A DNA stretch of 58,959 nt from Candidatus Omnitrophota bacterium (GTDB lineage Bacteria; Omnitrophota; Gorgyraeia; B26-G9), in the NCBI GenBank assembly GCA_018817585.1, contig JAHITE010000094.1, positions 1-58,959 of the forward strand. The letters run 5' to 3'. A model generated the notes under the pieces. The model was not told the DNA's origin. It worked only from the letters and a program-made list of their open reading frames with translations, and ran no database searches. Made by a program: the position numbers and the translations under genes. Positions 1,786 through 55,889 of the stretch are shown here, piece by piece (position 1 is the stretch's first letter; each line of letters opens with the position of its first letter).

Positions 1786-4700
1786 ATGTTTAGCAGGGGA
1801 AATATGTTTAACTCAGGGAAAAAACACAATATATATTTCAGAGCAATTTCCGCCGTGATTATTCAGGCGTTTTTGCTTAGTGATATTGCTTTTGCCGCTG
1901 GCGGTGATCTGCGCTGGCTGAATAATGATAATTCCCAATCTTCTACTCTGGCTCCTGGTACCGCTATCCCGCAGGGGACTTTTCGTACAAAATTTGATCT
2001 TATTTTAGCACTTGTATCTGCTTTTGAAAAAAAAGATAGCGCTGATTTGCCGCTGGGAATGAACTATATTGATCCAGCGAATTCAATTGTAAAATTTGAA
2101 GGCAAAGATTCAGATCTTTTTATATTTGAGGCAAATAAAGATAATGTTCCATTGGTTTTAAAGAATGCGGCCGATCAAATCAGATTTAATGGATATGTTA
2201 TAGCGACTCTGCCCAAAGAAGTTCAAAAAATTCCGGAAGATTATGTTGAGGTAATAAGTGAAAAAAGCTTTGCTGAAAAGCTTGCGGCTTTAAAAGCTCA
2301 GGGCAAAGACTTTGATCCCCGGGCAGCTTTAGAACTGGTAAAGCAGTCCATACTATTAAATGGATTTACTGGCCAGTCTGAAACTATTGGCGCAAAACAA
2401 TATGCTCCTTGGAAAAAAAATAAATGGGATGTGCAAAAGCAGGCTATTGCTTTAATGACCTCAGGCGTAATTGTGCGCATGCCGACATCAGCAGGTAAAA
2501 CCTTTGTATTCAATGGCGTCAGTGTCTTAAGAAGTTTGGCAAATAAATGGAATCCCAATGCTCTCAAAGAAGTTTCCATTGTTCACACTGAAGAAGGACT
2601 TGTTGAAAGAGACGCCAGAAACGCGGCTCAGGTAAATGCTGATTTCGGGCTTACCACTGGATATGTTGTTTCTCGCGACGGCAGGAGAATTGCTTATTTT
2701 GTTGATGTAAACGGCAATGAGTCTGAATTGCCGGGCGGAGAAAAAGAGCTTTATGCTACAGCTGACATTGTTTATTTAAATATTAGTAATTTTATTTTCC
2801 GTTTTCTGGATGATAATTTTACCGCGCGTTCTGAAGCGGATATGGCATTGAATTGGGGCAAACAGACCTATTTTCTCGCTTTTGATGAAGGAGATGTTCC
2901 TTTAGATATTCGCGCTTTTAATCCGCATACAATTTCCGGAGGAGCTTCGCTTACTGGACAAGGTTTACAGCAGATTTCTGAACAAACCCTTAAAATGCAG
3001 GAAATTATTGATCAAATGATCCAAGGCGAGTTATTGCCGGTCAGCAATGAATTATGCAAAAAAAATGATGATTCTAAAACAGTTAGTCTGACAAAACGCG
3101 GCGAGCAATGGTTAAAAGCTAAATTAAATACAATTAGCGCGTATACTGATAATAAAGATAAAGCTTCAGTATTTGCTGATCAGACTTTATGGCAGGAATT
3201 TACTGAACTCGCTTTATCCGCGTATGTCTATTATCAGAATGGCCAGGATTATATTATCTCAGATGAAAATAAAGTGGTTATCATTGATAAAGATAATAGC
3301 GGTATGCAGATGCAAGGCATGAGCTGGAGTAATGGCTTGGATATTGCTGTGCGGTTAAAAGAACGCCGCAATGGTCTTGATATTGAAATCAAGCCTGATG
3401 CCTTAAATGTTGCGTCCATGATTTTACCGGTAATTTTAAGTAATAAATTAGGTCTTGTTTCCGGAGTCACTGCGGCTTCTGCTACTATTGGAGAAAAAAC
3501 AGCTGATAAGTATGGATTAGAATTTAAAAATCTTAGCGGTTTGGATCAGGTTTCAAAAAGAGTAGAACAGATTATCCTGAGTTCAGATAAACAGGAATCA
3601 ATGCAAAACGCGATTGACGCGCTGGTTGTGATGAAATCAGATCAAAGCGCAACGCGGGAAATGGCTGATTGGGGAATTCCTGATAATGCCGGAGCTGTGC
3701 TTGTGCGCTGCGATAATGAAAATCAGGCAGCTGATTTTACTGATCAGCTTTTACAAAAACAAGCTATGTCCGAGCGGAATATTGTGCGGATTACTCAGGA
3801 TGGGAAGATTACTGACGCCAAAGGCGCTGAAATAGCAAACCTCAGCTTGGCTGATCTTGATTCTTTGCTTGCGGATGATAATGTGGACAATGTTATTATT
3901 GAATTTGTGTCTAAAAATCATGAGTCTGTATTTGGCGGTAAAATGTTAAAAGATAAGGTAGAGGCACTTTCTAAAAACAGTAAGGTTATTATTGTTTCTA
4001 CCAATATAGCAGGCCGCGGAGTTGACTTTAAAGGCGACAGAATGGTGGTTATGTCTTTAAGTGCTGATGCCTCTGAAGAAACAGATATTCAGCTTAGAGG
4101 CCGCAGCGCGCGTGATGGCAGAGAAGGATTCTTTTTTGGTTTTTGGTCGCCGGAAGATTTTAATAATTATAAAAATCTTGTTTCGGAACAATTAGCTTAT
4201 TTAAACAGCAAAGTCAGGGTTGGTAAGCCGCATACATTTATTATGAGCAATGATTCCAAAGCAGCTGATCGCAGCCAAAAAATTATCACGGCCATACGTA
4301 AAAGTATAAATGATAATAAGCAAACCATGGAACAGCAGCAAAAAGCTTTTGGTGAGTTTTTGTGGCAGGAAGCGGACGCGAAAGGGAAAAACCAAGGATT
4401 TGCCCGGGAACATGTAATGTATCGAAGAAGTATAGTTACTCAAGGTTTAAATTCCTTAGGTATTCCTCAGCATATCATTCAATCAATCAGAGAAAAGATC
4501 GCTCAGGCGGTTGAGAATAAAATCACTTTTTTTCTCCAGCCGGAAGAATTTGTAAATGAAATTTTAAGCAAAGAGTTTGGCTTGAGCGATATAGACGCGC
4601 GAACAATTAAGCAGTCTTTAGAGTCAGGAGATTATGATATTGCCCAAGCTGTATTTTCTGTTATCGAAACTGTGCTTAAAAATCGCGCTTTGGAAATTGT

Positions 4701-7700
4701 TGACCAACAGTGGACACGTTTTTTAAGTGAATCAGAATGGAATAAACATCGATTAGAAAAAATATCAACGCGCTCTGGATATGAAAAGCAGTTTATAAAA
4801 CCGCAGATGATTTACGCGGAAATTAAGCGGATTACCGCGAATATATTTGAACGGACTAAAACCGTAACTCAAGAAGAGTTGGGAAAGAATGTAATTGCTC
4901 TGGCTTTTCAGCTGGCGGGAAAAGATCCTACAAGTGAAGAGATGGATCAAGCGCAAGCAGCGGCAGATAAAATAAATACTCTTTCCCTTGGTCAAAGAAT
5001 AAAACTCTTAACTTTAAGAATCGGTCCAGCGGCTATCGCCATATCGGCTAATATTGCTTTGGCTGTTTTAATTGGCGTAATATTTAAAGCGCTTAGCATA
5101 GGCGGCGTCGGCAGCGCGGTGGGTTTACCGGTTATTGGCAGCGCTATCAGTTTATTTCTTAGTTTAGGTCCTGTTGCTTTGGCGGCGATTACCATCGGCG
5201 CGGTAATGATTGGATTCGCGCTTAATTCACAGGTAAAGCGATTATCTCAGGTTGATTCCAGTATTGCCAAAATGGCTGACGCGATCGCGATTGGCCATCG
5301 GCAGTCTTTAAAAGACATTGGAAAAACAGTCGGATTAACTGCCTGGCGCAAGACGCTTACGGTAACTGCTACTTTCGCTCCTTTTGTTGCCGCGATGACG
5401 CTTTTTTCCTATATTGGTTCAGCGGCGTTTATTGCCGGTACTATCGGCAATACGGTTTTACTTGCTTCTGTGGTATTAGGGGTTGTCGGGATTATATCTT
5501 CAGGTTTATTGCTGTTTACCAGCCGCAAAGATTTAAAATCAGCTCCTTTGATGCCTATGACCAGCGCGAAAAGATTTTTCCGCGGCGGAATTTTTGGTTC
5601 TTTAGTTACTTTAGGAACATATGCTTTTGCTTTTGTTTCCAGCGGAACTTTTGGCGTGCCGGTGATTATCGGTATTGTTGGGGTAGGAGCAAGTATGCTG
5701 ATCGCTAAAAATATATTCGCGCTTAGCAGTGATAATATCGCGGTTAAAGGCTGGATTACTCCTTTAGGGTTTCTTGCCGGTATTGCAGCGGCAGCGGCTA
5801 TTGTTTTAGGCATAGTTCCTTTATTAGGAGTTCAGGTTATTGATTCAATTCGTATCGCGATGAGCACTGGAGTTATGCCGGGAGGCGGAGTTCTTCAGGT
5901 TGTGGGCTTCCTGGTTACAGCTTTATTTTCTTTACAAGGCATAATGTTTTTTAAATCCCAATATTCTACTGGTCAGAAAATCGCTAAACAAGAAGTTGGT
6001 TTTGATGGCAAAGCAAAAAAATCTAAACAAACAATCTTTACTTTTTTGGCAATGGGACGAGCTTCGGCTCTTCAATCCCGGATGGTTATGATTACTACTG
6101 GTTCAATTATGGGATTAGCCGTTACCGTAGGTGTTCTGATACTCGGAGTAAAATTAATTGCCATGCTGCCGCTGATTGCTTTATTTACTGTTGGTACTTT
6201 TATTTCTAAGGTAATTATCAGGAAAATTTCCACAAAACCCACAGACTATTCTGCTTTAGCTAAGCGTAAAGTAAAAAACTTTGCCGGAATACAGTCTCAA
6301 TTAAATACAGTAGGCCTTAATCAGTTTTCGGAAAATATTGGTTTAATTATCAATCAGTTTAAGCAAGAGGTTGGTAATTCACAAAATCCCACCAGCTTAG
6401 CTTATAGTAAATTAAATGGAATGATTGAAAAAGATAAGCTTCTACAGACTTTTCTTATTGCCCTGCAAAGTTCCAGTCCTAATGACGGCAGTTTCTTTTC
6501 CAAAGCGGAAATAAAGCATATGATTGCTAAAATTCCCATGGAAGATTTAAATTCTCAACAGCGAGCGGCGTTTACTAAAGCAATAATCGCTTTATTGGTT
6601 GAGCTTAATTTAGCTAAGGTCGGAGTAAATAGATTATTCAACATTGCGGTAAATCCGGAAAAACTTACCAAAGCTTTGCAGATTTCAGTTATGCCGTTTA
6701 TGGGAGCAACAATGCTGGCTTCTGTGCCGACAATGGCGGCAGCATCAATCAGCCAAAACGCGCAAAGTCCTTATGAAACAGCAAAAGCAGACCTTCCTCA
6801 AAATACTCCAGAAATAGCGGCTTATTATGCTAACTTGGCTGAGCAGGCAAGAAATGAGCGGCTAATTGAAATTCCGGATATAGAACAAGAACAGGCTTTA
6901 AATCAATTTGTCAGTAAGTTCAGAATTCCGGTTCTTACCGAATACCAGACAAACCTGGCTTGTGAATTCGGGGCAATTCGGGAAAATGGAATCCGTACTC
7001 ACAAAGGTTTTGATTTTCTTGTCCAGGCAGGTACGAATATTTATCCGACAATGCCGGGCAGAGTTGTTTTTGCCGGACAAGGTACTGGGTATGGCAACCT
7101 TGTTGTTGTCGAGCATGAAGTTGAGAATGGTATCTCAGGGCGGATAGATTATTTTTATACTCTATACGGGCATAATCAGTCTAATTTGGTGAAAACCGGA
7201 GATTATGTGGGAGTTAATGAGCCGATAGCAAAAGCCGGGGTAACCGGTCATGCGTCTTCACCTGATGGCGGATGTGTACATTTTGAAATTAAACAGGCTG
7301 AAAAGAAGATTAATGATTATTATCAATACATAGCTTTAACAGCGCTGGATCCTGAAGCTGTTTTAGGTAAAGATCTGCATCTTATGGCTGATATCAGCAA
7401 ACGTAATGAACCAATTTTGGTTGCCTCAATAGATCCGAGTATGCCTTTGTTTAGTTTAGCTAAAAATAAAGAGCCAAAAGTTATTGGTCAAGCACCTCCT
7501 CCTCCAGCTAAAGAACAAGTTAATGTTTCTAAGCCTGCTCCATATTCAAGTTTTGCCGGGATTATTGGCAAAAAAATTGTTTTAAATCAACTAATAAAAG
7601 GTAATTCCTGGGCTCAGGCAGCGCAGAAACTTTTTGGAAATCCGCATCTTTGGGCAACATTGCGGGATATATATGCGCGGCAACATCCAGACGAGAACGT

Positions 7701-10700
7701 TGTTGGGACATTAATAATTAATATTGCTAATGGCGCTACTTTAGAGATCACGGAAGAATTAGCAGCCTTACTTAGTCCTGAATTTAAAGCGACTATTGAT
7801 CCTAGAAATGCAGAGCAGATTATTCAGCCAACAGTTCATCAAACAGTTTTGCCTATAGTTCCTGAAGCAGGAAGTCAAGTAACTGCGCGAGTATGGAAAC
7901 ATACTGTTGAACCAGGGGATTGCTTATCTAAAATAGCCCAGGATCTTTTAGGCAGTCACAGGTTATGGCCAAATTTCCGGGAAATTTATAATCAGCAGAA
8001 TCCGAATAAGAAAATAATCGGGACTTTAATTTTCGCTAGTGACACCTTAACCTTGAACATTACGGATGAAGTTGCGGCTTTAATGACTCCCGCGGCAAGA
8101 GAGAATCTTAATCTAAAACCTGCGGCAAGCGGACCGCCGCCGGCCATAGCAAAATTAACTGCTTCGGATACACCAGCTGCTATTGCTAATCCTGTTTCCA
8201 ATAATGATGATCAAGATCAAGATAGCTTTGCTATTCGTGATCAAGTGGCTGCGCGTGCTAAAGAATTAATGGCTTCGCGTGCCGCGGAATTAGCTAAAAA
8301 GAAAAATGCTGAAACTGAAAAAATTTATTACTCTGATCCTGCTAAACCAACCCCTGCTCGCAACTATGAACGCGGTCTTGCCAATGCGATTATAAAAATT
8401 TTAACTAATGCCGCGGAAGGCGGACATTTTGCGGTGGCGGAAAACCCTGCATTAAGTGATGAGTTAAAGACAGCTGGCAATTTATATTTTTATCATAAAG
8501 GTTCGGAACAGGAAATTGGTGCGCGTGATGGAAGTTTGCAAAAACTTATTGATGCTGATCGCGCCAGTAATACAGCCAAAAATGTGGCAGATATTGAGAT
8601 CTGGATTGGCAGTAAATATCTAAAAGATACTAAAGGTAATATTTTAAGAGATAAAAGAAATAATCCAATATTAAATGAATTAGCAAAACCATATATTCCG
8701 CTTATTGATAATAAGCCGCTGGTTTATGATTCTCTTAGCCAGCTGAGTGATGTGCAGAATTTATTGCATTTTTACAAATTTCCAACTCAGCTGGAGAATA
8801 GAGATAGCTTTGGCCGAGGTCAGGAATTAACCAGTCCGTCTGAGATTAGAGATTATCAGGCCAAAGGCTTTCCTTTAGATATTTGGATTGAAGGAAAAGA
8901 TGTTGGCGGTCAATATTCATACCGTTTGAATTTTGGTACAGTTGCCGCGAATATGACCCTGGACGATGTAAATGATTATGCCAGAGCAAGAGTTTTGCAA
9001 TTGGAAGTTGTGGGTAAAATTTTAAGTAATCTTGATCGCGAATCTCAGCAGCAAATGATCAACGACGCGAATACTAAGGGGATTACTCCTTTTGGGGCTG
9101 CGGCTATTCCAAATATCGCTGGGAAATTGCCGGAAAATCCAATGATGAAGGAAAATCCGTATATTGGAGCGATTGTTGCCCAAAGAGGCAGTAATCCGTT
9201 TGAAGTTAAGACTTATTTGCAAAGCGATAACCTGAATCAGAATTATATTGAAGTATATAATGCCCAGAAACATATCTCAAAAGCAGAACGGCTTGAAAAA
9301 ATAGATAAAAATACTAATTTTGATAATGTTTATTATTTCTCTAAAGACTCTGCGGGAAAATTACTTCAAAGAAAAATGCATTTTCTGAGTTATAATCGCC
9401 AGGGTAAATTAGTCGAAGTTAATGCCCGCTCGGCTCATGATGTAATTGTTTTGGAAACAGAAGGAGCCAAAGGAGACTGGGCTAATTGTGATATTTTATG
9501 GTTTGGCAAAAACGCGACTAATAAAGAAATTTTGAATGTTTCTATTGGTACTTTAATGCATCAGATCGCGGTTGAGAATGCCAAGAAAACAGAAAAACAG
9601 TTAAAACGCAGAATGGTGCTTGAGACAGCTTTAATTCCGTTAAATGTTATGGGCGGATTTGGTGTAGGCGGTATTATTGGGCAATTGTCGCAGCCAGGTG
9701 CTCAGGCCGGCATCCGTTTAATATATGATAGTTTATTTACTGCCTGGGAAATGCCTACAGGCGCTAAAATAATGGGCCCGCCAAGCAAAGATACTGTTGA
9801 GACTTTTATTTCCAGTTATTTGTTTTTTAATCAAGGCCCTGGCAAAAATAGGCCGGCAGAACAAAAAGGTCTTGAATTTATTACCAAAGAGGATAAAGCA
9901 GGCAACCTAACTGTTACAGATAAGGAATTTGCTGCTTATTTAGAAAAACAGAAGAAAGATAAAAAATCAGATCTTAATCTCTGGCTGACCATGGCCATGG
10001 ATGATCAAGCAAGCATAGGATTTGTTAACTATGTCCAGGGGCAGCGGAAATTTGCTATTGCCATGTTTAGCGCGGGAATACTGGATAACTTAGCACGATT
10101 GAACACCGAGAGTTTTAATGCTCCGGGCAATGCTTTTAGAAATATTCTGGCCAGCAGATATTTTAGTTTAACTGGTGAAGTTAATGTATTAGCAGTAATC
10201 GGGGCAATTGCCGGCAATGATGTTTTAGGTGCCGGAGCTAATTTTGGCGCGTTTAAAGAAGGCTGGGGAAATTTCTGGGAAAATTACGTTAATTTCTTTG
10301 GGGTTACAGTTGACGCCAAAGCAGTGATTAATAGCTTAAGTACTTTATTTACAAAAGACAAAGTATTTGAATATAGTCCTGAGCTGCCTAAAAAACGCGC
10401 TTTTGGTCTTTATTTTCTGGGATTTCCGATAATGACCTATTTTGATCTTAAAAATACTCAGGGATTTATTAATTCTTCTAATTCTTTTGCTTTTGAAATG
10501 GAAAGCAGCAGCAATCTTTTTGATAAAAAATGGTGGAGAGATAAAGTCACTGAATATACTGAAGAGGATTTTCAAAAACTCAAGCTGGTTCCTTTAGGAA
10601 AAGTCAAAGCAGAAGGTGAAAAAGGTCAGCCGGTTTGGAGGGTTTATTATATTAATGCTGATACTGGAGGGATTGTATTCTTGGGAGAAAAAGGATATGC

Positions 10701-13700
10701 CAGTAAACTAAAGCGGCTTGAAGACGATGTTAAGCTTTTTGATCAGTTTATGTCTTTGATTGGTGAGGGCGGAGGGAGAATAGAAAAGAAAAGTTATGAT
10801 GCCGGAGCTGTTGTTGAAGCCAATATCACTCAGCCGCAAGCCACGAAAGCTGGAGAAAGGATTCCAGACTTAAACCAGCAGATGCTTTCTTTTTCCTGGA
10901 ATACAAGGCATTCATTGACTAATATTTCTCCCAGTCATATTTATGATACAAAGGCAACAACAAATAGTCTTAATTGGGCTTTTACCTATGACATTGCTTT
11001 GCAATCCATTACTCTTGCCGCGGGCGGAATGCCCGATGAATCAGATGCTTTGCTTAATTACCTTACTGAGCACAAATGGTTATATCGCCAGGGGGAAAAA
11101 GATGATTTTAATGGCGGGGTCTATAATTCAGTTGATCTTGCGCAAATTTCTAGTGCTACGCAAAAACCAATAGCTGAGTTTCGCAATAATGCCGGAAATA
11201 GTAACTGGGTAGCCGCGGCGTTAATTAAAGGCGCTTTACAACATCTTAAACAGCGTTTTCCTGAACCCAGTCTTAATCCTTGGCAGCTAGTGCTTGTTGA
11301 TCAAAAAGAAGAGGTTGATCAGGGGCGAGAAGATTTTAGAAAAAATGGTGATATTGATAAAGTTTTTGCCGGCCGGGGCGAAACTCAGTGGGGTTTTCTT
11401 GGTTTGCGGACAACAAAACTTGCCGCGGTTGATCAAGCGATGAATGATCAGGAAAAAGCCTATATTGAGCGGGCAAAAAATATTGCTGTGTCATTGCTTG
11501 CTTTACAGGATAAAGATGGCGGAATCCGTCATGGTCCGACTGAGCTTAATATTAAATCAACAGAAGAAAATATCAATGCCTTTGGCTTATTTTCCATGCT
11601 TTATGATCTTACAGGTGAAAATAAATATAAAGACGCGGCTAAGAAAATTTTAGAATGGCTGCCAAAAGTTTATGATAAACAAACCGGAGTTTTTCATCGG
11701 GGAATTACCGATGAGATAGTGGATAAAATTTATACTACTGATGCTAATGCTTTGGCAATCATTGTTATTGGCCCTGAGATTTTAAATAAATTAAAAGACC
11801 GCAATGGTTATGTTTTTGATCCTAACGGCAAGACAGCAGAAAAGATCATGGGCTTGAAGGATAATAAGGGAACAATTACTGCCAGTGAAGTAACCGTAAA
11901 ATATAAGGGTAATGATGTTTTAGGTTATGATTATACAAACGCAGATGGCAGAGCAAACAGAGGAGCGGTTGTATCTCCGGAAATGACAGCGCATGTTGCC
12001 AAAGCGCATAAAGTTATGTTTCGCTATTACGCGAATGATCCCGCTAAACAGACATATCACGCTGATAAAGCTAAGACACTGCTGGATAATATGGAAAAAA
12101 TAGCGCTGAGAACTGATTTGGGAATTTCCTTCCCAAACAGTACTGTGCCGGAAAATATTAAACAGGGCGAGCAGATAAACCGATATTATGATGAAAGAAA
12201 AAAAGAATCAGGGCAAGCTGCCAGTGATTTTTATACTCCGTCATTGGCTAGTTTGAATTCTTTATGGATTATATTGGCTGACAAAGATGTCGATCCTTTT
12301 GATGTTCGCAATGAAAAACCGCTGGCTGAAAGATCAGCGGTTAACGGCTTTAAAGGATTTGATCAGTCGATTATCAATTTAAAAGAAAGAATTCTCGATT
12401 TGCAAAAACAAAAGAGAACAGATGCTAAATGGTCAAAAGAAAATGAACAGATTCTTATTGCGGCAATTGATCAGATTAATCAAAAAATGCAGCTATATAC
12501 AAAAGGTATGATCATCCCGGCTGGTCAGGAGTACAATCAAGATATTCTTACAATAATCGCGCTTAAAGCTAAACAAACTAAAGGAATAAAGCTAAACCCT
12601 AAAGAAGCAGCGGATCTTAAGGCCTCAGAATCAAGGCATCCATATTATCAAGGCTGGGATAAGTTGAGTATGCTTTCTGAGAAACGGTTTGTAATCAATC
12701 AAATTAAAGAGATTAAGAAGCTTGAAAGTCCAGCTAAAGATCAAAAGCTAAAGGAATTAATCGATAAAGTTATAAAAGCTTATTATGGTAATGGTCTGAA
12801 AAGTGAGCAGCAAATAGCAGTAATGATAGAGAAGTTTGCTCAATTATTGAAGAATAGCGAATCAGTCGAGATGGCTGCCTTTGAATTAGTTGATATGTTG
12901 TATGGTCAGGACAAGCTGATCAGTGAAGATATTTTTAAAGGAGTTTATCAATATTTGAGTGCGGAAGATAATAGTATCGTTACTGTTACTTTGATTGCTC
13001 CGGCAGAGGCAATTAAGGCTGCTAGAGAAAAAAGGCAGGAAGAGCAAACGATCGCGGCAAAACAGTATGAATTGCTTGAAAAAGGCGGAGTTATTATTAC
13101 TGATAAATCCACTGGCCGGCTTTTGGAAATAAGAGCGGGTGAGGGTATTGATGTATTAGGACAATTTCTCGATAAGATAAAAAATATGGTTGCCGCGGAG
13201 GAAATTGATGTCGCGGCTATGCAGAAAATAATGAAAGACCGCTGGGTATTTACAATCCCTGCGAATAGTTCTGAGGCGCTTTCTGTAAATGGCAAGAAAC
13301 AGGATGTGACTGTTACTTTGGTATTTCCTTATGCTAGTGAATATGTGCGCGAAGAGGAAAATCTAAGAACCGGAGAAAAAGAAGTGCGTGTTTTTAAGTA
13401 TGGTTTACTTGATCGGGTTATTACTAAAGATAAAATTACCGTAATGCAATACAATAACATTGAAGTTGATGTATCCGGTACTGTTTATGAAAATATCACC
13501 AGAAGACTGGACAAAGATGCTCCCTATAAACCGGAAAATATTTTACTAATATCAGAAACTGCTGTTTATGATACTGTTTTTGATGTAGAGAAAGTTTCTG
13601 GAGCAGTTAGCCCGGTTGTAATTAAAAAAGTTTTAGATCCTGATTCAAAAGCAGTTAAGTATGAGGTTTATAAGGATTATGAATTACCGGTTATGACTTT

Positions 13701-31065: not shown

Positions 31066-34000
31066 ATGTATAATAATAAACATAGCAAACATGTGTGGTT
31101 TAAAGCAATCTCATTGATTCTGATTCAGTCATTTTTGTTTACTAATATTGGTTTTGCCGCGGAAAATCTGATTACATCTGTGGATAATAGCTATCTTGCA
31201 CCGACTATAAATATTCAAAATGGAGCAATTTCTTCTACCTTTAATAATGTTTTAAATGATAACGATATTACTAATGCCAATAATGTAAGTCATATTGAGC
31301 CATTAAAAACCGGTTTTGAGACAAAAAACCATTATATATCCGAGCTTAATCGCTTAAAATCCAAGAAATATATTAATAAGTTTACTGATGCTGAGCGGGA
31401 AGATTTAAGAATTGAGCTTACTTCTGAGCGTAAGGCAGCTTATTTGGCCGCGATTCGGGAAGTTTTAAAAGAAAAGAATGTAAAAGTTATTACTCCGGAA
31501 ATTTTGTTTGAAGCAGCAAAAAGGGCAACTAAAAATGATCATTCTACGGTAAAAGCGCGGGTGAATTTACAGCCAGGAACAATGAATCCTTTGCATTATG
31601 GGCATTTAACCGCTTCTTCAGCCGGGATTATCGGCCGGGTTACAACTGCGGATAAAAATAAACAAGTAAAAGTTATGACTCTGCTTGCCAACGGCGGGAC
31701 TGTTCCGGACAAACCTTTTGCCGCGAAAGCTGAGACTCGTAATGAAATGGCCAGAAAAGCAATAGAAAATTCAGACATGCATGATTGGACTGAAGTTACT
31801 CCGATTCGCGGTCAGGCAGTTGACATGTTTCTATCTTCCCGGGAAAATTTAGTTTTAGCCGGAAAAAATGAAAGCAGTAGACGGTTTAATATGGATATGG
31901 CTTCATTTATCTGGTTATTTGTGGCTAATCCCAATGTTGAATGGGTATATCTTGTTGGTTCTGACAAAGTCGCCGGATACGGTAAAAAGAATGAAAAAGG
32001 TTTATTGGTTGACACTTTAAGCCGCCCGGAAGCGCATGCTAGTGTGGTTTATTTTGGCCGAAAAGGCGAAGAAATAGATTATGAAAATGATATTAAAAAA
32101 TATGATTGGCTGGATAAACTATGGAAAGCTGGATTTTTTAAGCTGTCCACTGTGTCTAGTTTTGCTGATTTATCAGCAACTAAAGTAAGAACCGCACTGG
32201 TAAACGGCGATGAGCAGATTGACGGTATCTCTTTAAGTGAAACCATGCCTACCAGTGTGTCGGAGTATATAAGAGATAATCGGGAATTAATGTATTTATA
32301 TCCCTTAGAAATGCAGGAGAAAAAAGCTAATAAGCTGGTCTCTTCTAATAAGTTAGCTGAAGGTTTAAAAGAATACGCCAAAACCTCGCAAATGGTTAAA
32401 GATGAAATTGCTAAAGATGCTATTGATCGCGCTGTAGATTTAGGAACACTTAATACTTTGTATTTAATGGTACTGGCCAATGAAATCAGAGCTTTGGCAT
32501 CTGTAGGTGCTTTGAAAGAAATTTCTCAGATATTCTTAATCTATTCCGCCGCGCCAGGTACAGGCAAAGGTGAGTTAATGGATAATACCTTTGAAAAAGG
32601 AAAAGGCAAGTTTGCTGATATTATTGGTAAGATTATTCTGTATCATACCCGTAACCCAAGAGTTAAAAAAGGTGCTTCTGAAAAAGACGGGTTAAAGTAT
32701 CACTTCCGCACTCAAGCACAGCTAAAAGACTTAGAGGCTAAAGGCAAAATTGTTACTGCTTTGGTTAATCGCCAGTTACAGGGTTTAGCAATTGAAGATT
32801 TTGTGGAAAATGGGGTTATGGTCCAAGGGGTTAATAATGCTGATCTTTTGCAAAAAGACGATATTATCAAGCAGATAAAATCAGACAATGTAGGTAATAT
32901 TCAGCAGATTATTGTTGAAAGAGCAGGTAAAACCGAAAAAATTAGCGGTGTTAGTATTGCTCTTGATTCAATGTATGGTCTGAATGAGGGAGATACGGTA
33001 ACTGATGTAAAAAATAATGCGGTTATTGTTGACCGGCAAGTAAAAGGCATGTCTTCTGTATTTGCTCAAGGCGAGCCAGTGGTTTTAGAAGGCGGATATG
33101 GCTGGTTTAATGCCTTGGTTAATCAAAATCCTGAAATAGTTAGCATGTTTATTGCTCCATTTGCGGATAAAGATATTCAACAAAGAGAAGCAAATACTGC
33201 CTGGATTAATCAGAACTTTTCTAAAACATCAGAAAGATTAATTGCTTACCAGGTAATACAGACTTTAATTGAAAAAAATTTAGGCGAGATAAGTCTTACT
33301 CTAGCTAATGATCAGTCTAAACAGTGGCAGTCTGTTATTAAAAGAGCAGTGGAAGATCAGAGAATAGCTAATTTTAATGCTGAGCTTCTTGACTCGGAAG
33401 CATTTGTTCAGGATTTAAATGATCTGCTAAAATTATTCTCTAAAGATCCGATTAATAAAGATCAGGAGAATCTAGTTCGTTCTTTAGGCTATGAAGTTAA
33501 TCGCCGTATAATATCTCGTGAAGGTCAGATTCGTTATAGTCGCGGAAAACGGCCGGCATTTGCCGAAGGTGAAACTGATCTGCAATTTGACCGCTATAAT
33601 CGGGTATTAGAAGGGGTTGTTCAAATTCTGCATCGCGATGATTATCAGAAGAATAGGCAATTTGGTAAAAAAATTATTAACCCTTGGGGCTATACAGAAG
33701 ATAGCAAAAAGCAAATTATCAGCACTCTTACCAGTGATTTTACCAGATTCTTTTTTGAAAGTATTTTAACTGGAATCAGGATTCAGCTTGCTACTAAAGG
33801 TCATCAGCTTAATGCTCCGCCTGCTGATATTGACCGGAAATCTATTGAAGCTGGAGAAGCTGAGATTGATCAGATTCTTAAATACAGCGATCAGGATATA
33901 AAGGGGCTATCAATAGAAGAGCTGGCAGCTCATGTAACTGCGCTTACTAATACAGGTACTTTGGCCAGAGTGCCGGATTTATCGCAAATATTTTTAATTT

Positions 34001-35340
34001 ATTCAGCAGCTCCTGGTACTGGCAAAGAAGAATTAATGAATGCTACGTTTGAAAAAGGCAAAGGCAAGTATGCTGATATTATTGGCAAGCTGATTCTTTA
34101 TCATACCCGCAATTCACGAGTTGAAAAAGGCGCTGCTGAAAAAGACGGAATTAAATATCATTTCCGCACTGAAAAACAGCTTAAAGACTTAGCTGCTCAA
34201 GGAAAGATAGTAGTTGCTTGGGTAAATCGTCAGCTACAGGGACTTGCTATTGATGATTTTGTTGAAACTGGTGTAGTAATTGATAATGTTGAGGGAACCG
34301 ACATGTTTAGAGTCGGTGATAAAATTACTGAAATTGGAACAGTGAACAATGCAGGTAATACAGGTCTTCTCCGTATTAATGTGCGCAGAGATTGGCAAAT
34401 AATTGATGTAAGGGGTGTAAAGATTCCCACGGATGTAATGAGTGAGCTTATTGAAGGTGATCTTATTACGGCGATTAATCCTAATTCATTAGTGGTCAGT
34501 CGTCAAGTTAAGGGTCTGAATTCTGTTTTTACCGAAGGGAAGCCTGTTGTTTTAGAAGGCGTTTATAGCTTGTTTAATCAGCTTTTCAATCAGAACCCCA
34601 ATATTGTTACAATATTTTTAGCTCCTTTTTCTGATAATGATATTGATGTAAGAGAACGCAATACTGTATGGATCAATGCTAATTTTAATACTTCGGCAGA
34701 ACGTTTAAAAGCTTATGAAACAGTTCAGGTATTGATTGAAAAAAATAAGGGAGAAATAAATCTTAATCAAAAAGGTGCTCAAGGTCAGTTATGGCGGGAC
34801 GCGATCAGAAAAGCAGTAGCTGATGAGAAAATCAGTTTGGCTAATGCTGAGCTTATTGAATCAGATTCCTTTATAAACAGCTTAAATGAATTGCTGGAAA
34901 TTTTCGGGACTTCTCAGGTAACAGAAGATCAATATGATTTAATCAGAGCTTTGGCGTATGAAGTTACTCGCAGACTGGTTTTTAGGGAAGGAGAACTACT
35001 TTTTGAAAAGGGACAACGTCCAATATATCCTGTGGGAGAAACAGATCCTAATCATGATCGCTATAACCGGGTATTAGAAGGAGTGGTTCAGATTCTTAAG
35101 CGTGATGATTATGATACTAATAGACAAAACAATCAGTTCGGTAAAATCATTGACAATCCTTGGGGATATACAGAAGAAAGCAAAAAACAAATCATCAGTG
35201 ATCTTACTAATGGATTTACCAGATTCTTTTTTGAAACAATTATCGCTCAGGTAACTGAGAAATTAACTTCCGGTCCGATTAATAGATGGGTAACACAGCA
35301 ATTGCAGACACAAGTTCAGGCTGTTGGTTCTGCGATATAA
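31066..35340 (+). CDS. Leader-bearing NadD-like nucleotidyltransferase fused to two tandem guanylate-kinase-like units
   Basis: RBS GAGGAGGA just upstream. Leader FKAISLILIQSFLFTNIGFAA. NadD-like LQPGTMNPLHYGHL ... SSFADLSATKVRTAL. P-loops IYSAAPGTGKGELM (about 32530) and IYSAAPGTGKEELM (about 33990), each followed by LYHTRN.R...EKDG.KYHFRT, VVLEG.Y and a DRYNRVLEGVVQIL tail. Confidence 0.85.
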   Translation: MYNNKHSKHVWFKAISLILIQSFLFTNIGFAAENLITSVDNSYLAPTINIQNGAISSTFNNVLNDNDITNANNVSHIEPLKTGFETKNHYISELNRLKSKKYINKFTDAEREDLRIELTSERKAAYLAAIREVLKEKNVKVITPEILFEAAKRATKNDHSTVKARVNLQPGTMNPLHYGHLTASSAGIIGRVTTADKNKQVKVMTLLANGGTVPDKPFAAKAETRNEMARKAIENSDMHDWTEVTPIRGQAVDMFLSSRENLVLAGKNESSRRFNMDMASFIWLFVANPNVEWVYLVGSDKVAGYGKKNEKGLLVDTLSRPEAHASVVYFGRKGEEIDYENDIKKYDWLDKLWKAGFFKLSTVSSFADLSATKVRTALVNGDEQIDGISLSETMPTSVSEYIRDNRELMYLYPLEMQEKKANKLVSSNKLAEGLKEYAKTSQMVKDEIAKDAIDRAVDLGTLNTLYLMVLANEIRALASVGALKEISQIFLIYSAAPGTGKGELMDNTFEKGKGKFADIIGKIILYHTRNPRVKKGASEKDGLKYHFRTQAQLKDLEAKGKIVTALVNRQLQGLAIEDFVENGVMVQGVNNADLLQKDDIIKQIKSDNVGNIQQIIVERAGKTEKISGVSIALDSMYGLNEGDTVTDVKNNAVIVDRQVKGMSSVFAQGEPVVLEGGYGWFNALVNQNPEIVSMFIAPFADKDIQQREANTAWINQNFSKTSERLIAYQVIQTLIEKNLGEISLTLANDQSKQWQSVIKRAVEDQRIANFNAELLDSEAFVQDLNDLLKLFSKDPINKDQENLVRSLGYEVNRRIISREGQIRYSRGKRPAFAEGETDLQFDRYNRVLEGVVQILHRDDYQKNRQFGKKIINPWGYTEDSKKQIISTLTSDFTRFFFESILTGIRIQLATKGHQLNAPPADIDRKSIEAGEAEIDQILKYSDQDIKGLSIEELAAHVTALTNTGTLARVPDLSQIFLIYSAAPGTGKEELMNATFEKGKGKYADIIGKLILYHTRNSRVEKGAAEKDGIKYHFRTEKQLKDLAAQGKIVVAWVNRQLQGLAIDDFVETGVVIDNVEGTDMFRVGDKITEIGTVNNAGNTGLLRINVRRDWQIIDVRGVKIPTDVMSELIEGDLITAINPNSLVVSRQVKGLNSVFTEGKPVVLEGVYSLFNQLFNQNPNIVTIFLAPFSDNDIDVRERNTVWINANFNTSAERLKAYETVQVLIEKNKGEINLNQKGAQGQLWRDAIRKAVADEKISLANAELIESDSFINSLNELLEIFGTSQVTEDQYDLIRALAYEVTRRLVFREGELLFEKGQRPIYPVGETDPNHDRYNRVLEGVVQILKRDDYDTNRQNNQFGKIIDNPWGYTEESKKQIISDLTNGFTRFFFETIIAQVTEKLTSGPINRWVTQQLQTQVQAVGSAI

Positions 35341-35671: not shown

Positions 35672-38212
35672 ATGAATAAATTATTATCCAAATCCTGGGT
35701 TCGCATTATTTCCATAGTTCTCATCCAAGCCTTCCTGATATTAGATATTGCCTGGGCAGGAGGAACAGAGCTATCAGTTGTAACTCCTGATAAAATGCTC
35801 AGTGCTCAAGTGCAAATCAGCCAGCTGGATTTTGCGCTTGGTTTTGATAAGTTCTATAAAGTTAAAGATCAGGCATTGGCCCAGGAAGATATTCTTACGG
35901 CTAATAAAGCACAAGAGCAGAAAAGCGTAGGGCAGGGGAGATCAGTAATTAAACAAAAAGCTATTGAATACTACCAACAGCAAACAGATACTCCTGACGC
36001 ATCAGTTATCGACCAAATATCTAGTTGTGAAATCCCTGCGTATTATCTTGAAAAAGCAAGAGTATTAAATAAATTTGGTGTTTCTTTTGAAGTTGTAGCT
36101 AATGTTAAGCAAGTTAATCAGGGAGTATTTGGTACGAATTATATATCATCAGCCAATGTTAGCGAAGACGATAAAAATGTTTATGAATTTACTGGTATTG
36201 ACATAAAACCTTTGACTGCTGATAAAAATACAGAGCTAAAGGATATTATAATTGTAGCTATTCCTGAGCTTAAAGAGTTTGGTAAGAATGAAGCGGAAAT
36301 GTTTGATTATTATGTAAAAGAATTATTCTTTTATGCTGATTTTACCAATAAAGTGAAAGAAATAGTGGCAAATATAGTGGAATTAAAAAACAATAAGACA
36401 GTAGATGCTTTAATTGCCATGGATAAATATTCTGCGAGTTTTAATTTTGCCAATACTCTGACAATTATCAGAGCTTTAGGGCAGTTAAAAGATAATAAGG
36501 CAGTAGATTTTTTAATCCAGCAGTTAAAAGATAAGGGTGTTCAGGAAAGAACCTGGGCAGACACAATAATTGATGCTTTAGAGCAAGTTGGTGTAGACAG
36601 AGATAAGAGCATTGAGAGCTTGATTGATGCAGCTATTGCTAAGCTTGATAATCAATATACTAAAACAAAAGCCGCTTATGTATTACAAAGTTTTGGCGTA
36701 AAAGCAAAAAGAGCACTTCCGGCGCTTAGAGAATCACTCAAAGCTGAACCTGAAACTAAAAGCAGAATGGTTGGTCATGACGGCATATCTGATGTGCCGG
36801 CTATTGGTCAAGTTGAAGAAGAAAATATTACTTGCTTAATATTGAAAAATATTATTGAGAACATTGAAGCTTTAGATCCATCAATTCCTAAGATGCAAAA
36901 AACCGGCCGCAAAACAGTGGAAGTTTATTTTGATAAAGTTAAGCAGATGGAAAAAGATAAAGAAATAACAAAAATTGATCATGAGGATATTCGTTTTGCA
37001 ATGGATAAAGACCAAAAAGATTTTTATATTGCAAAGATTATAGAAGTAATGAAAACTAAAAAAGAAGAAGTTATTACTCCGGCAATTTTGTTTGAAGCAG
37101 CAGCCTTAGCAACAGAAAATGATCATTCAGATATAAGTGCCAGAATTGGTTTACAGCCTGGCACAATGAATCCATTACATTATGGCCATATTTCCGCGTC
37201 TTTGGCTGGGATCATCAGTGAAAAACTGGACATGGTATTGCTGGCAAATGGCGGCACAGTGCCGGATAAGCCATATGCGGCTTCTGCTGATATTCGCAAT
37301 GAAATGGCTCAGATTGCGGTTAATGAACAAGGTGAGGCTAATAAGCTTGGGCTCAATCAATGGCTTGAGGTAACTCCGATCAGAAAAGAAACAGTGGAAA
37401 TGTTTAGCGGCAATGAGGAGCTTCTAAGTATGGCAGGAAAAGATGAGTCAGCTCGCCGTTTTAATATGGATATGGCTGGGTTTATTTGGATGTTTGTTGC
37501 TAATCCTAATGTTGAATGGGTTTATCTTGTTGGCTCTGATAAAGTAGGAGCAAAGGGTGAAAAAGGATACGGGGAAAAAGATGAAGTAGGCCTTATCAAA
37601 GACACTTTAGCTAAAGCTAAGGTTAAGATTGTATATTTTGAAAGAACAGGTAAAGAAGTTGATGTTAAAAATCAAATTGAAAAATATCCGTGGTTGCATG
37701 AACTGTGGAAATCAAATTTTAAAAGATCAGATGTGGGGTCTTTTGCTGATCTTGCTGCTGTAAAAATAAGAAAAGCCTTAAGTGATAAAAATGATATACC
37801 AACCAAGGATCGGATTGTGGGCAATCATCCGCTAGACCAATCAATTCCTCAGGGAGTGATTGACTATATTACCGCGGATACTGCTCAAGGAAGACAGCTT
37901 AGGTTTTTATATCCTTTGGAAAATGAAGAAAAAGCAGCTGATAAGCTTGTAAAACAGAAAAAATTGGAAGAAGGTTTGCAAGCATATCAAACTATTTTAA
38001 ATAAGATTGATCTTGAAAAAGAAAAATCTGACGATCAAAGACAGGCAAGCATGCAGGTGCTTGAATCCGCGGCTAAGAGCTTGAATAAAAAAATCGCGAA
38101 AATGGATCTGCAGAATAAAGCTATTGAACAAATCAAAGACACTGGTTTGAGTATGGATAAATTAAATATTTTAAATACAACCTCATCAGGGTTTATAATG
38201 CAGGCAATATAA
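35672..38212 (+). CDS. Leader-bearing HEAT-repeat / NadD-like nucleotidyltransferase protein
   Basis: ATG at 35672 (GAAGGG 9 nt upstream; the track start GTG 35663 is also possible). Leader VRIISIVLIQAFLILDIAWAGG. HEAT/PBS-lyase-like repeats about 36374..36752 (AVDFLIQQLKD...IIDALEQVG...). NadD-like LQPGTMNPLHYGHI, LLANGGTVPDKPYAAS, RRFNMDMAGFIWMF, GSFADLAAVKIRKAL. Coiled-coil tail. Confidence 0.85.
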   Translation: MNKLLSKSWVRIISIVLIQAFLILDIAWAGGTELSVVTPDKMLSAQVQISQLDFALGFDKFYKVKDQALAQEDILTANKAQEQKSVGQGRSVIKQKAIEYYQQQTDTPDASVIDQISSCEIPAYYLEKARVLNKFGVSFEVVANVKQVNQGVFGTNYISSANVSEDDKNVYEFTGIDIKPLTADKNTELKDIIIVAIPELKEFGKNEAEMFDYYVKELFFYADFTNKVKEIVANIVELKNNKTVDALIAMDKYSASFNFANTLTIIRALGQLKDNKAVDFLIQQLKDKGVQERTWADTIIDALEQVGVDRDKSIESLIDAAIAKLDNQYTKTKAAYVLQSFGVKAKRALPALRESLKAEPETKSRMVGHDGISDVPAIGQVEEENITCLILKNIIENIEALDPSIPKMQKTGRKTVEVYFDKVKQMEKDKEITKIDHEDIRFAMDKDQKDFYIAKIIEVMKTKKEEVITPAILFEAAALATENDHSDISARIGLQPGTMNPLHYGHISASLAGIISEKLDMVLLANGGTVPDKPYAASADIRNEMAQIAVNEQGEANKLGLNQWLEVTPIRKETVEMFSGNEELLSMAGKDESARRFNMDMAGFIWMFVANPNVEWVYLVGSDKVGAKGEKGYGEKDEVGLIKDTLAKAKVKIVYFERTGKEVDVKNQIEKYPWLHELWKSNFKRSDVGSFADLAAVKIRKALSDKNDIPTKDRIVGNHPLDQSIPQGVIDYITADTAQGRQLRFLYPLENEEKAADKLVKQKKLEEGLQAYQTILNKIDLEKEKSDDQRQASMQVLESAAKSLNKKIAKMDLQNKAIEQIKDTGLSMDKLNILNTTSSGFIMQAI

Positions 38213-47368: not shown

Positions 47369-47439
47369 TTTGTGGCAGGTTAAGCTTTATGCTAAAATAA
47401 TTCAAACTGATAATTCAAAGCAACGGAAAATATTTGCCT

Positions 47440-51741: not shown

Positions 51742-52418
51742 TGCGATTGAAAAAAGGCGTTACCCTGATCGAGCTTTTAGTTGCCATGGGAATTCTGGCT
51801 TTGCTGGTAACTATTTTATATTCGGTGTTTAGTGTTTCTTTGCGTGCCTGGAAAAAAGCTGATAATATATTTAAAGCAACAACCATTGCCCGGGTTGTGC
51901 TAGACAGGATCTCCCGGGAAATTTCCAGCGCGTTGATCAAAGATAATAATTTTTATTGCCTGGGCTTTGATTCCACTGCGCCTAGCGGCTGGAGAACCAA
52001 TAGTATTGGCGATGAATTCTATTTTATCGCGCCGACAAATCCCGGCAAAGAGACTTCTGATTTAGCGGAACTTGGTTACTGGCTGGATGGAGAAGGAACC
52101 GCGGCGGCAAATGATGATGTTTTGAGAAGGTTCTATGTTCTTGATGACAGAAATGATGTAAGTTCTTCGGATTTTGATTTTAACTTTTCAACCGGTTCGG
52201 CTAATGCGAGTGATCCGTTTTCTGAGAATATTACTGATCTGCAATTCACTTTTTTTGATACCAGCAATAATCCGGCTAATTCCTGGGATTCGCATACAGA
52301 CGGGGTTCCGAGTAAAATCGAGATATTAATTACAGTGCGAATCGGCCAGGGCACGCAAGCCACAAATCCGGAATTTTATCAAAATAGTTATACTACGACA
52401 ATTTCCTTCCTAAAATAA
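51741..52418 (+). CDS. Type IV pilin-like / T2SS pseudopilin with prepilin leader
   Basis: MRLKKG|VTLIELLVAMGILALLVTIL (Gly -1, Glu +5). The ATG overlaps the upstream stop (TAATG). Confidence 0.75.
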   Translation: MRLKKGVTLIELLVAMGILALLVTILYSVFSVSLRAWKKADNIFKATTIARVVLDRISREISSALIKDNNFYCLGFDSTAPSGWRTNSIGDEFYFIAPTNPGKETSDLAELGYWLDGEGTAAANDDVLRRFYVLDDRNDVSSSDFDFNFSTGSANASDPFSENITDLQFTFFDTSNNPANSWDSHTDGVPSKIEILITVRIGQGTQATNPEFYQNSYTTTISFLK

Positions 52419-55887: not shown

Positions 55888-55889
55888 TT

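Follow-up and report, generated by a model that had tools for sequence, protein, structure and literature searches.

A diverged SecA-type motor inside a giant, probably membrane-bound Omnitrophota protein

A SecA-type ATPase was confirmed to be encoded on the forward strand at positions 2317-4914 of the 58,959-nucleotide stretch of Omnitrophota DNA analysed here (the window), inside a giant open reading frame (ORF) at 1804-30546 whose product is probably a 9,580-residue membrane protein. As judged from sequence comparison and a structural model, the motor appears to be a very diverged yet essentially complete translocation ATPase of the SecA type, with NBD1, a PPXD clamp, NBD2, a scaffold helix and a two-helix finger. 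The explanation that we favor, with moderate confidence, is that this near-complete motor, carried within a giant membrane protein, drives polypeptide translocation. A SecA-like motor in a giant Omnitrophota protein has already been described, and the basic finding is not new: SecA_DEAD and PP_bind domains in such proteins are described both by West-Roberts et al. (2023, bioRxiv 10.1101/2023.11.21.568195) and by Nielsen & Lui (2026, bioRxiv 10.64898/2026.06.07.730766), the latter as an architecture cluster under PF07517.

The true start codon of the giant ORF is probably ATG 1804 and not TTG 1729, because the sequence AGGGGA lies at 1795-1800 and the N termini of homologues begin at the equivalent methionine. 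A preliminary description of this DNA had placed the SecA-like motor at 2390-4160. That location was correct, but the module is larger, running from about 2317 to about 4914 and including a scaffold-like helical domain; the residue numbers given there (220-810) were counted from the mechanical TTG start. All of the motif strings that it quoted were located in the forward-strand translation of the giant ORF. Further domains recognised by Pfam in this ORF were Peptidase_M23, a weak GH76 match, and C-terminal Glyco_transf_5 and Glycos_transf_1; the linker between leader and motor matched no known domain in Pfam or NCBIfam. The features of the locus are as follows.

1804-30546, forward strand: giant ORF, 9,580 aa from ATG 1804 (9,605 aa if translated from TTG 1729)
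1804-1896, forward strand: Sec-type 'IQAFL' leader, MFNSGKKHNIYFRAISAVIIQAFLLSDIAFA followed by AGG; conserved, always N-terminal
1897-2316, forward strand: linker of ~140 aa from leader to motor; AGGDLRWL and S-x-LAP motifs conserved
2317-4914, forward strand: whole SecA-like module, aa ~172-1037 of the 9,580-aa ORF
2317-2943, forward strand: NBD1, the first RecA-like domain (Pfam SecA_DEAD, alignment to E. coli SecA, hhalign, secondary structure of the model)
2479-2502, forward strand: Walker A, MPTSAGKT, in NBD1
2881-2895, forward strand: Walker B, FDEGD, in NBD1
2944-3405, forward strand: PPXD-like insert in NBD1, signature DYIISDENKVVIIDKDNSGMQMQGMSWSNGLDIAVRLKE (Pfam SecA_PP_bind; aligned to SecA residues ~300-350)
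3250, forward strand: YIISDENK, one of the motif strings quoted in the preliminary description
3406-4170, forward strand: return strand and NBD2 (Pfam Helicase_C 5e-7, hhalign)
3472, forward strand: motif III-like AASATIG, in the return strand
4000-4029, forward strand: motif V, TNIAGRGVDF, aligned to SecA TNMAGRGTDI
4090-4119, forward strand: motif VI, QLRGRSARDG, aligned to SecA QLRGRSGRQG
4270-4458, forward strand: scaffold-like long helix (model helices 684-715 and 727-746, broken by the insert QEADAKGKNQG)
4468-4623, forward strand: short helices where SecA has its wing domain, assignment tentative
4639-4914, forward strand: two long antiparallel helices, the putative equivalent of the two-helix finger (model helices 807-850 and 861-898)
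4771-4800, forward strand: finger tip loop RSGYEKQFIK, with an aromatic tip
5023-6204, forward strand: orphan membrane block with ~10 helices, co-conserved with the motor (alignment)
31066-35340, forward strand: 1,424-aa ORF with the same leader and no further hydrophobic segment
35672-38212, forward strand: HEAT-repeat ORF of ~846 aa with the same leader (leader pattern)

Profile and sequence searches placed the motor with SecA. The Pfam models SecA_DEAD (55.5 bits against a cut-off of 24.6, E 7e-15) and SecA_PP_bind (41.5 bits against 23.5, E 2e-10) both scored above their gathering thresholds, and the SecA_SW and P-loop_SecA models gave no match to the motor. The likeness far exceeds what chance would give, and neither outcome that the preliminary description named as refuting (no SecA-family HMM match, or a generic SF2 helicase without the PPXD-like insert) was observed. 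The block-by-block likeness to SecA claimed in the preliminary description was borne out by phmmer against the PDB, in which E. coli SecA was the top match at 1.9e-10 and aligned over precisely those blocks. A profile built from eight relatives reached SecA in the PDB at 9e-25, and comparison of the family profile with 30 canonical SecA proteins by hhalign gave 100% with E 4e-60 over 695 columns, a match that leaves out about the first 60 columns of the SecA profile. Sequence identity to housekeeping SecA was only ~20-25%. The best NCBIfam equivalog match, SecA2_Mycobac, scored 54.3 bits against a cut-off of 725, which rules out SecA2 membership, and no SecA equivalog was listed. A search of the 59-kb window detected no second SecA.

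Structural comparison gave the same assignment. Single-sequence AlphaFold2 prediction of the module yielded a pLDDT of only 35, and an alignment-based model was used instead (pLDDT 84.1, pTM 0.86), whose input alignment consisted mostly of canonical SecA and may bias the helical-domain part. The top 34 Foldseek matches of this model in the PDB were all SecA or SecA2, with E values down to 9e-30, and the best target-relative TM-scores were to SecY-engaged SecA (6itc 0.71, 5eul 0.68, 3dl8 0.65 and 3din 0.64). The first helicase other than SecA in the Foldseek list was MDA5 (1e-8, TM 0.25-0.34). Weak Pfam matches to DEAD and Helicase_C, and weak NCBIfam matches of the second RecA domain to DbpA and RecQ, could be taken to indicate a nucleic-acid helicase of the generic SF2 or DEAD-box kind, or else the non-functional remains of a decayed SecA. 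However, the full-length SecA profile and fold matches were better by orders of magnitude, PPXD scored above its Pfam cut-off, and the catalytic motifs were conserved across relatives. A generic helicase was ruled out because both the PPXD and the scaffold are present, and we regard this pair of readings as scarcely credible.

The catalytic motifs were intact in the window and in its relatives. Walker A as SAGK[T/S], Walker B as FDEGD, motif V as GRGVDFKG and the motif VI arginines in Q..GR..R.G were kept in every relative covering them, down to 32% identity. The NBD1 motifs were retained in all seven relatives that span this domain, and the G, R, D and Q residues of NBD2 were invariant in 8/8 family members. 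The NBD2 region was ~60 aa longer than its SecA counterpart. The motor is predicted to be an active ATPase.

Despite the missing Pfam SecA_SW match, a scaffold helix and a two-helix finger, both diverged, appear to be present, as indicated by profile alignment and by the model and as supported by the whole-chain Foldseek alignments to SecA. When the C-terminal helical part was compared on its own with the portion of SecA that follows motif VI, hhalign gave 91% (E 1e-6, 195 columns). The scaffold helix was modeled with pLDDT mostly of 85-95, and the two finger helices were 38-44 residues each in the AlphaFold2 model. The finger aligned to the 'LL..D..W..hL...' region of SecA; its KHRL was invariant, and the tip carried GY or GF in 7/8 relatives. 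The position of the wing was occupied by ~50 aa of short helices (model residues 750-801), shorter than the SecA wing, where hhalign confidence was low. The C-terminal linker and zinc-finger tail of SecA (CxCxSGxxxxxCH), which many of the canonical SecA matches carried, was absent, and the finger ran on into transmembrane helices. Some genuine SecA proteins also lack the zinc finger.

The best genome matches were metagenome-assembled genomes (MAGs) of Candidatus Omnitrophota, at 76%, 53% and 37-40% identity, together with a MAG labelled 'PVC group'. Two further MAGs also matched, one labelled 'Clostridia' and the other unclassified. A word-indexed protein search with the single motor sequence found nothing, and the same search with the family profile returned only canonical SecA and protein P0001, which is assigned to Candidatus Omnitrophica in NCBI. 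In a neighbor-joining tree, a distance tree without support values, the motor fell on a long branch apart from canonical SecA: the window motor, P0001 and a second protein, P0002, shared a branch of 0.9 beside other fragments of long ORFs. The median distance from the motor to canonical SecA was 2.45, compared with 1.28 among canonical SecA proteins.

The motor is followed by a block of ~10 transmembrane helices, segmented by eye from hydropathy and not by a dedicated predictor. A profile of this block matched in eight loci (E 1e-129 to 1e-212), and motor and block were inherited together even where they lie 1,376 or 1,611 aa from the start of the ORF. The loops on the motor side of the block contained 30-45 lysine and arginine residues, compared with 1-4 on the opposite side, and by this positive-inside count the motor lay on the K/R-rich side in 8/8 sequences. 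Because of this charge bias, the motor is predicted to face the cytoplasm. By the same count, both ends of the block lie inside, with very short outer loops, and the ~4,700 aa that follow it would also be cytoplasmic. Hydropathy alone leaves helix parity downstream of the block too ambiguous to locate the M23, GH76 and glycosyltransferase domains. The ~4,700-aa region holds the M23 peptidase and the GH76-like domain, both of which normally act extracellularly. Its apparent cytoplasmic position counts against our favored explanation.

An alternative that draws on this result is that the module is a repurposed unfoldase or holdase, which grips, unfolds or holds the nascent giant chain or its partners at the membrane without translocating them. 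The possibly cytoplasmic location of the region after the block, the long branch of the motor, the absence of the SecB-binding zinc finger and the NCBIfam equivalog scores far under the cut-off are all in its favor. We nonetheless consider it unlikely, as the motor has kept the PPXD clamp, scaffold helix and aromatic-tipped finger, the elements dedicated to driving a polypeptide into a channel, and its best structural matches were to channel-engaged SecA.

The joint inheritance of motor and block in eight loci, together with the ~10 helices, inward-facing ends and very short outer loops of the block, also invites the proposal of a self-contained translocon. The block would then be a new channel and the 'IQAFL' leader a cargo tag for very large Omnitrophota proteins, making the whole a single-chain analogue of SecA2/SecY2. 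Three consecutive ORFs in the window share the leader, which also occurs on other large metagenome proteins, as such a system would have it. However, the block matched no Pfam family or PDB entry at E<=10 and scored 0.1% in an hhalign comparison with E. coli SecY, so a SecY relative was ruled out at the sequence level. Most other leader-bearing ORFs also had no motor nearby: within the 5-15 kb around them, on short contigs, it was found only at locus L014 and, weakly, at L012. This proposal is quite unlikely; if true, it would represent a previously unrecognised export system with a new type of protein-conducting channel.

The leader upstream of the motor was correctly recognised as Sec-type in the preliminary description. 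It combines a basic n-region with a hydrophobic core and an A-x-A site, and homologues have conserved it; these features, with an acidic or neutral flank downstream, recurred in ~15 independent sequences. The leader was found in loci L002, L003, L005 and L006 and in metagenome loci, N-terminal in all of them, and matched no known sorting domain in Pfam or NCBIfam. A hand-made, degenerate DNA pattern of the leader hit three sites in the window where none was expected, and ~5/20 of its metagenome sites were chance matches. The shared leader of the three window ORFs is unusually conserved in sequence.

At face value, a conserved, cleavable-looking Sec-type leader would export the motor, which is a point against the favored explanation; were it an export signal, the motor would therefore lie outside the cytoplasm, without ATP. 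On that reading, the leader would serve as an ordinary export signal and the motor would act outside, for instance once delivered to prey or a host with ATP of its own, or as a polypeptide clamp that needs no ATP. Beyond the canonical build of the leader, this reading gains from the HD and HEAT domains, typical of cytoplasmic proteins, on other leader-bearing proteins and from the description of Omnitrophota as predators or episymbionts. However, ATPase residues so strictly conserved point to a motor with access to ATP, the adjoining block by its charge bias assigns the motor to the positive, cytoplasmic side, and no mechanism is known by which such a module could reach another cell. An exported motor is very unlikely.

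Most likely, the protein would serve as a membrane-tethered, dedicated translocation motor. In the mechanism that we infer, the motor, joined at its C terminus to the conserved ~10-helix block, would most likely spend ATP on driving polypeptide through a protein-conducting channel. This channel would probably be the housekeeping SecYEG and, less probably, the protein's own transmembrane block. The cargo may be those segments of the giant protein that lie outside the cytoplasm, other large leader-bearing proteins, or both. We infer a role for the leader as well.

Compared with housekeeping SecA (E. coli 6gox/2fsf, B. subtilis 6itc/5eul and T. maritima 3din/4ys0), the window motor has the same domain order, with PPXD inserted in NBD1, the same catalytic motifs and a whole-chain fold match with target-relative TM up to 0.71. 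It differs in lacking the C-terminal linker and zinc finger and in carrying extra inserts in NBD2 and the finger loop. Housekeeping SecA is a free-standing, peripheral protein of ~800-1,000 aa, whereas the window motor is fused to a membrane block and has a signal-peptide-like leader upstream. SecA2 (mycobacterial 4uaq; C. difficile 6t4h/6sxh) resembles the window motor as a second, diverged SecA paralogue beside the housekeeping one. Streptococcal SecA2/SecY2 exports serine-rich glycoproteins. The likeness could extend to a plausible dedication to few very large substrates and to an association with glycosyltransferases, with the specialised leader as a possible analogy. However, SecA2 is free-standing, the window motor has no specific sequence affinity for it, and SecA2 entries in the PDB scored no better than SecA1. 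Neither SecY2/Asp partner genes in the window nor a SecY-family match among its ORFs of at least 150 aa were found.

The closest likeness is to the SecA-like clade of giant proteins in West-Roberts et al. (2023). Like the window ORF, these have SecA_DEAD and SecA_PP_bind without a SecA_SW match, inside an ORF of several thousand residues with many transmembrane helices and with peptidase, glycoside-hydrolase and glycosyltransferase domains. They too form a long-branch clade apart from housekeeping SecA, with relatives in Omnitrophota MAGs and with pilin/T2SS-like and sugar-import neighbor genes. That preprint proposes self-export for the giant proteins and reports that a normal SecA is retained in the same, complete genomes. 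The window ORF is shorter (9.6 kaa, compared with the >30 kaa set of that study). Further, the preprint states that the scaffold and wing domain are lacking, whereas profile-profile and structure tests indicate a diverged scaffold helix and finger in the window motor. The conserved pairing of motor and ~10-helix block and the common leader are not mentioned in its accessible text.

For the insertion or export of bacterial proteins of 10,000-150,000 residues, a SecA-type motor built into the chain offers the one obvious clue, and the window provides a compact (9.6 kaa), experimentally tractable example. The retained clamp, scaffold and finger, the constant pairing with the block and the common operon leader make the published idea of self-export testable, with predictions that concern the topology of the motor, activation of its ATPase by the leader peptide, and dependence on SecYEG as opposed to the fused block. 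Nearby genes in the window include a sugar transporter, glycoside hydrolases and a pseudopilin-like gene, a neighborhood that agrees with the surroundings of giant Omnitrophota genes reported by West-Roberts et al. (2023, bioRxiv 10.1101/2023.11.21.568195).

The giant open reading frame, the sole enormous ORF in the window, was listed from a TTG codon (1729-30546, + strand, 9,605 aa), from which residue numbering in the preliminary description was also counted. The true start is likely to be the ATG at 1804 instead, because an AGGGGA sequence precedes it at 1795-1800 and homologues start at the corresponding methionine. The protein read from this ATG has the following features.

Features of the giant ORF
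1804-1896, + strand: leader, at the start of the 9,580-aa ORF
2317-4914, + strand: SecA-like module (motor)
~5023-6204, + strand: block of about 10 hydrophobic helices directly after the two-helix finger; outer loops very short, three inner loops rich in K/R
~6997-7314, + strand: Peptidase_M23 domain (3.6e-19), after the block
~11395-11706, + strand: weak GH76-like match (4e-6), after the block
~28912-30180, + strand: GT-B glycosyltransferase, starch/glycogen-synthase-like (Glyco_transf_5, 6.8e-60, and Glycos_transf_1), at the C-terminal end

The presence of a SecA-like motor in the giant protein, proposed earlier from inspection of the sequence, was confirmed by Pfam, hhalign and Foldseek, and the SecA interpretation is supported. 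All motif strings quoted in that proposal were found in the translation, including those listed here.

Motifs located by script in the translation of the giant ORF
nt 2479, + strand: MPTSAGKT
nt 2881, + strand: FDEGD
nt 3250, + strand: YIISDENK...
nt 4000, + strand: TNIAGRGVDF
nt 4090, + strand: QLRGRSARDG

The suggested block-by-block correspondence was reproduced by phmmer, which paired the Walker B/TPLIISG block, the PPXD core and motifs V and VI with those of E. coli SecA, the top match of the motor among all PDB sequences (1.9e-10). Pfam detected SecA_DEAD (7e-15; 55.5 bits, cut-off 24.6), SecA_PP_bind (2e-10; 41.5 bits, cut-off 23.5) and Helicase_C (5e-7) in the motor, with no match to SecA_SW or P-loop_SecA. 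An exhaustive phmmer search of 1.84 billion representative proteins returned only 3 matches below 1e-30 and 17 below 1e-10; the remaining matches among those listed were mostly of canonical SecA length, many with a C-terminal zinc finger. A scan of GTDB genomes found seven related loci, the best (76% identity) in a Candidatus Omnitrophota MAG and the others in Omnitrophota, one "PVC group" MAG, one Clostridia-labelled MAG and one unclassified genome. A family alignment of eight sequences (A4), built with these loci, matched SecA in the PDB at 9e-25 and aligned with a 30-sequence canonical SecA profile over 695 columns (hhalign probability 100%, E 4e-60). Thus, the resemblance of the motor to SecA exceeds chance.

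Within A4, the catalytic residues were kept in every member covering them, down to 32% identity: Walker A as SAGK[T/S], Walker B as FDEGD, a motif III-like AAS[A/G]T, motif V as GRGVDFKG and motif VI as the pattern Q..GR..R.G. Aligned on its own with SecA after motif VI, the helical region C-terminal of NBD2 matched (hhalign probability 91%, E 1e-6, 195 columns) over the long scaffold helix and the "LL..D..W..hL" region of the two-helix finger and, with low confidence, over the wing region. An AlphaFold2 model of the motor (pLDDT 84.1, pTM 0.86), whose 101-sequence input alignment was mostly canonical SecA, placed a long helix at 684-746 with an 11-residue insert, then a few short helices, then an antiparallel helix pair, 44 and 38 residues long, with RSGYEKQFIK as the connecting loop; the hhalign result does not depend on this model. 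Immediately N-terminal of this loop, KHRL was invariant in A4, and the Gly-aromatic pair at the finger tip was present in 7/8 relatives. When the model was compared with the PDB by Foldseek, every one of the first 34 hits was SecA or SecA2 (E 9e-30 to 3e-17), and SecY-bound SecA structures had the highest TM-scores (6itc, 0.71; 5eul, 0.68; 3dl8, 0.65; 3din, 0.64). The first non-SecA helicase was MDA5 (1e-8, TM 0.25-0.34). Collectively, the motif conservation, hhalign matches and predicted fold argue that the motor is of SecA type over its whole length, and the missing Pfam SecA_SW match reflects divergence rather than loss. An identity as a generic helicase or decayed relic is scarcely credible alongside these data, and an unfoldase or holdase working without translocation is unlikely.

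The motor is also distant from canonical SecA. It lacks the zinc-finger tail, and the first ~60 SecA profile columns fell outside the hhalign match. SecA2_Mycobac scored 54 bits where NCBIfam requires 725, and the NCBIfam matches listed for the motor included no SecA equivalog. In a distance tree, the motor grouped with two related proteins (P0001 and P0002) on a branch 0.9 long, with a median distance to canonical SecA of 2.45 versus 1.28 among canonical SecA.

The membrane block was conserved with the motor in 8/8 loci, always directly after it. In L004 (WJOT01000045.1) and L008 (CAZIXI010000001.1), both MAG contigs, the pair lies 1,376 and 1,611 aa into the open frame rather than near the N-terminus, the former offset being counted within a frame cut at the contig end. 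Because the two are paired in all eight loci, even when internal, motor and block form one unit. L004 carries a Clostridia label, which may reflect a binning error or transfer outside Omnitrophota. No relatives of the block were found in Pfam or the PDB at E<=10, nor did hhalign relate it to E. coli SecY (0.1%). An autonomous machine in which the block itself supplies the channel is rather improbable.

With helix boundaries set by eye from hydropathy and alignment, the 10-helix model gave 30-45 loop Lys+Arg residues on the motor side versus 1-4 on the opposite side in every sequence. By the positive-inside rule, this concentration of charge places the motor in the cytoplasm, which fits an ATPase with conserved catalytic residues. 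Beside this charge bias, export of the motor to work outside the cytoplasm or in prey is decidedly improbable. The same count also places on the cytoplasmic side the ~4,700 residues after the block, a stretch without hydrophobic segments that contains the M23 and GH76-like domains; this placement fits badly with these domains and is odd for cell-wall hydrolases. Topology predictions for giant proteins are described as unreliable in a passage of West-Roberts et al. (2023, bioRxiv 10.1101/2023.11.21.568195). The C-terminal GT5/GT1 domain is presumably cytoplasmic, since nucleotide sugars are needed.

The remark in the preliminary description that a Sec-type leader precedes the motor held: a basic n-region, hydrophobic core and A-x-A site were seen, and these are conserved in homologues. 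The N-terminus of the giant protein reads MFNSGKKHNIYFRAISAVIIQAFLLSDIAFA followed by AGGDLRW; the flank after the A-x-A site is acidic or neutral, and the segment is conserved in four related genome loci (L002, L003, L005 and L006). The two ORFs that follow share this leader and resemble the giant protein only across their first ~50 residues.

Leaders of the downstream ORFs
31066-31160, + strand: leader of the second ORF (31066-35340, 1,424 aa)
35672-35760, + strand: leader of the third ORF (35672-38212, ~846 aa, HEAT repeats)

The consensus is [KR]x[IV][SA]xx[LIV][IV][QK][AS]FLxx[DN]IxxA, then GG/E, then an S/x-LAP motif; it is covered by no Pfam or NCBIfam model, and the ordinary signal peptides of other window ORFs appear unrelated. 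A degenerate DNA pattern of the leader found exactly three window sites, in three consecutive large ORFs, versus 0 in 100 shuffles. JGI metagenome contigs (L010-L027) gave 20 sites, ~15 of them genuine, all of these a few codons downstream of a stop, on ORFs of 609 to >2,688 aa; two loci had two adjacent leader-bearing ORFs. Among these metagenome loci, most with 5-15 kb of sequence around the ORF, a motor followed the leader only in L014 and, weakly, in L012, and other leader-bearing proteins carried HD or HEAT domains. In metagenome locus L023, the leader and first 173 residues of the ORF at 7768-9450 match the giant protein (48% identity) before diverging, and no motor was found across its 561 aa. 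The N-terminal module appears to be shuffled between proteins. Its conserved N-terminal occurrence on large proteins argues that the leader is a lineage-specific, sequence-conserved tag, several of whose bearers have cytoplasm-type domains (HD, HEAT, SecA-like ATPase). It could be read by the motor, by analogy with SecA2 substrates, or could be a membrane tether or a genuine export signal.

We consider it about an even chance that the motor is a dedicated SecA-type translocation ATPase, which its own block holds permanently at the membrane's inner face. Its cargo would be segments of the giant protein, leader-bearing partners or both, passed through a channel that is most likely SecYEG. The data show homology and fold, intact motifs, joint conservation of motor and block, and a charge bias; activity, cargo and channel are our inference. 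A single-chain accessory export system combining the motor, a new channel and a dedicated leader is a rather doubtful prospect.

Passages of West-Roberts et al. (2023) describe SecA-like domains of giant proteins as a separate long-branch clade that may export the giant protein itself, in genomes encoding normal SecA, SecYEG, SecB and SecD elsewhere. Proteins of their "Archaeovorin" class combine peptidases with glycoside hydrolases and glycosyltransferases, and T2SS-like genes and genes for carbohydrate import lie close by. The window fits this picture: its giant ORF has M23, GH76-like and C-terminal GT5/GT1 domains, and a sugar transporter and a pseudopilin-like ORF are encoded downstream. 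Passages of Nielsen and Lui (2026, bioRxiv 10.64898/2026.06.07.730766) report a 20-protein PF07517 architecture cluster and place 39% of long Omnitrophota proteins in a signal-peptide-plus-TM class. The window motor therefore belongs to an arrangement already described in Omnitrophota giant proteins. However, the SecA-like domains of West-Roberts et al. are said to lack scaffold and wing, whereas the scaffold region of the window motor is retained though diverged. Beyond these published passages, our analysis adds signs that the scaffold helix and two-helix finger are kept, the motor and 10-helix block as a conserved unit, and the common leader.

Consistent with the published passages on the neighbourhood of Omnitrophota giant genes, the following genes lie downstream of the giant ORF.

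Genes downstream of the giant ORF
39206-40648, + strand: MFS_2 sugar transporter
40740-42632, + strand: GH2_C/GH72-like ORF
44231-45505, + strand: GH2_C/GH72-like ORF
47434-49386, + strand: PilZ-domain ORF
51741-52418, + strand: N_methyl pilin/pseudopilin-like ORF
53589-54608, + strand: Glycos_transf_4 ORF
55821-56669, + strand: ABC-2 permease

All ORFs of at least 150 aa in the window (16/16) were on the + strand. GC skew was positive in every 3-kb bin, and GC content was 33-41%.
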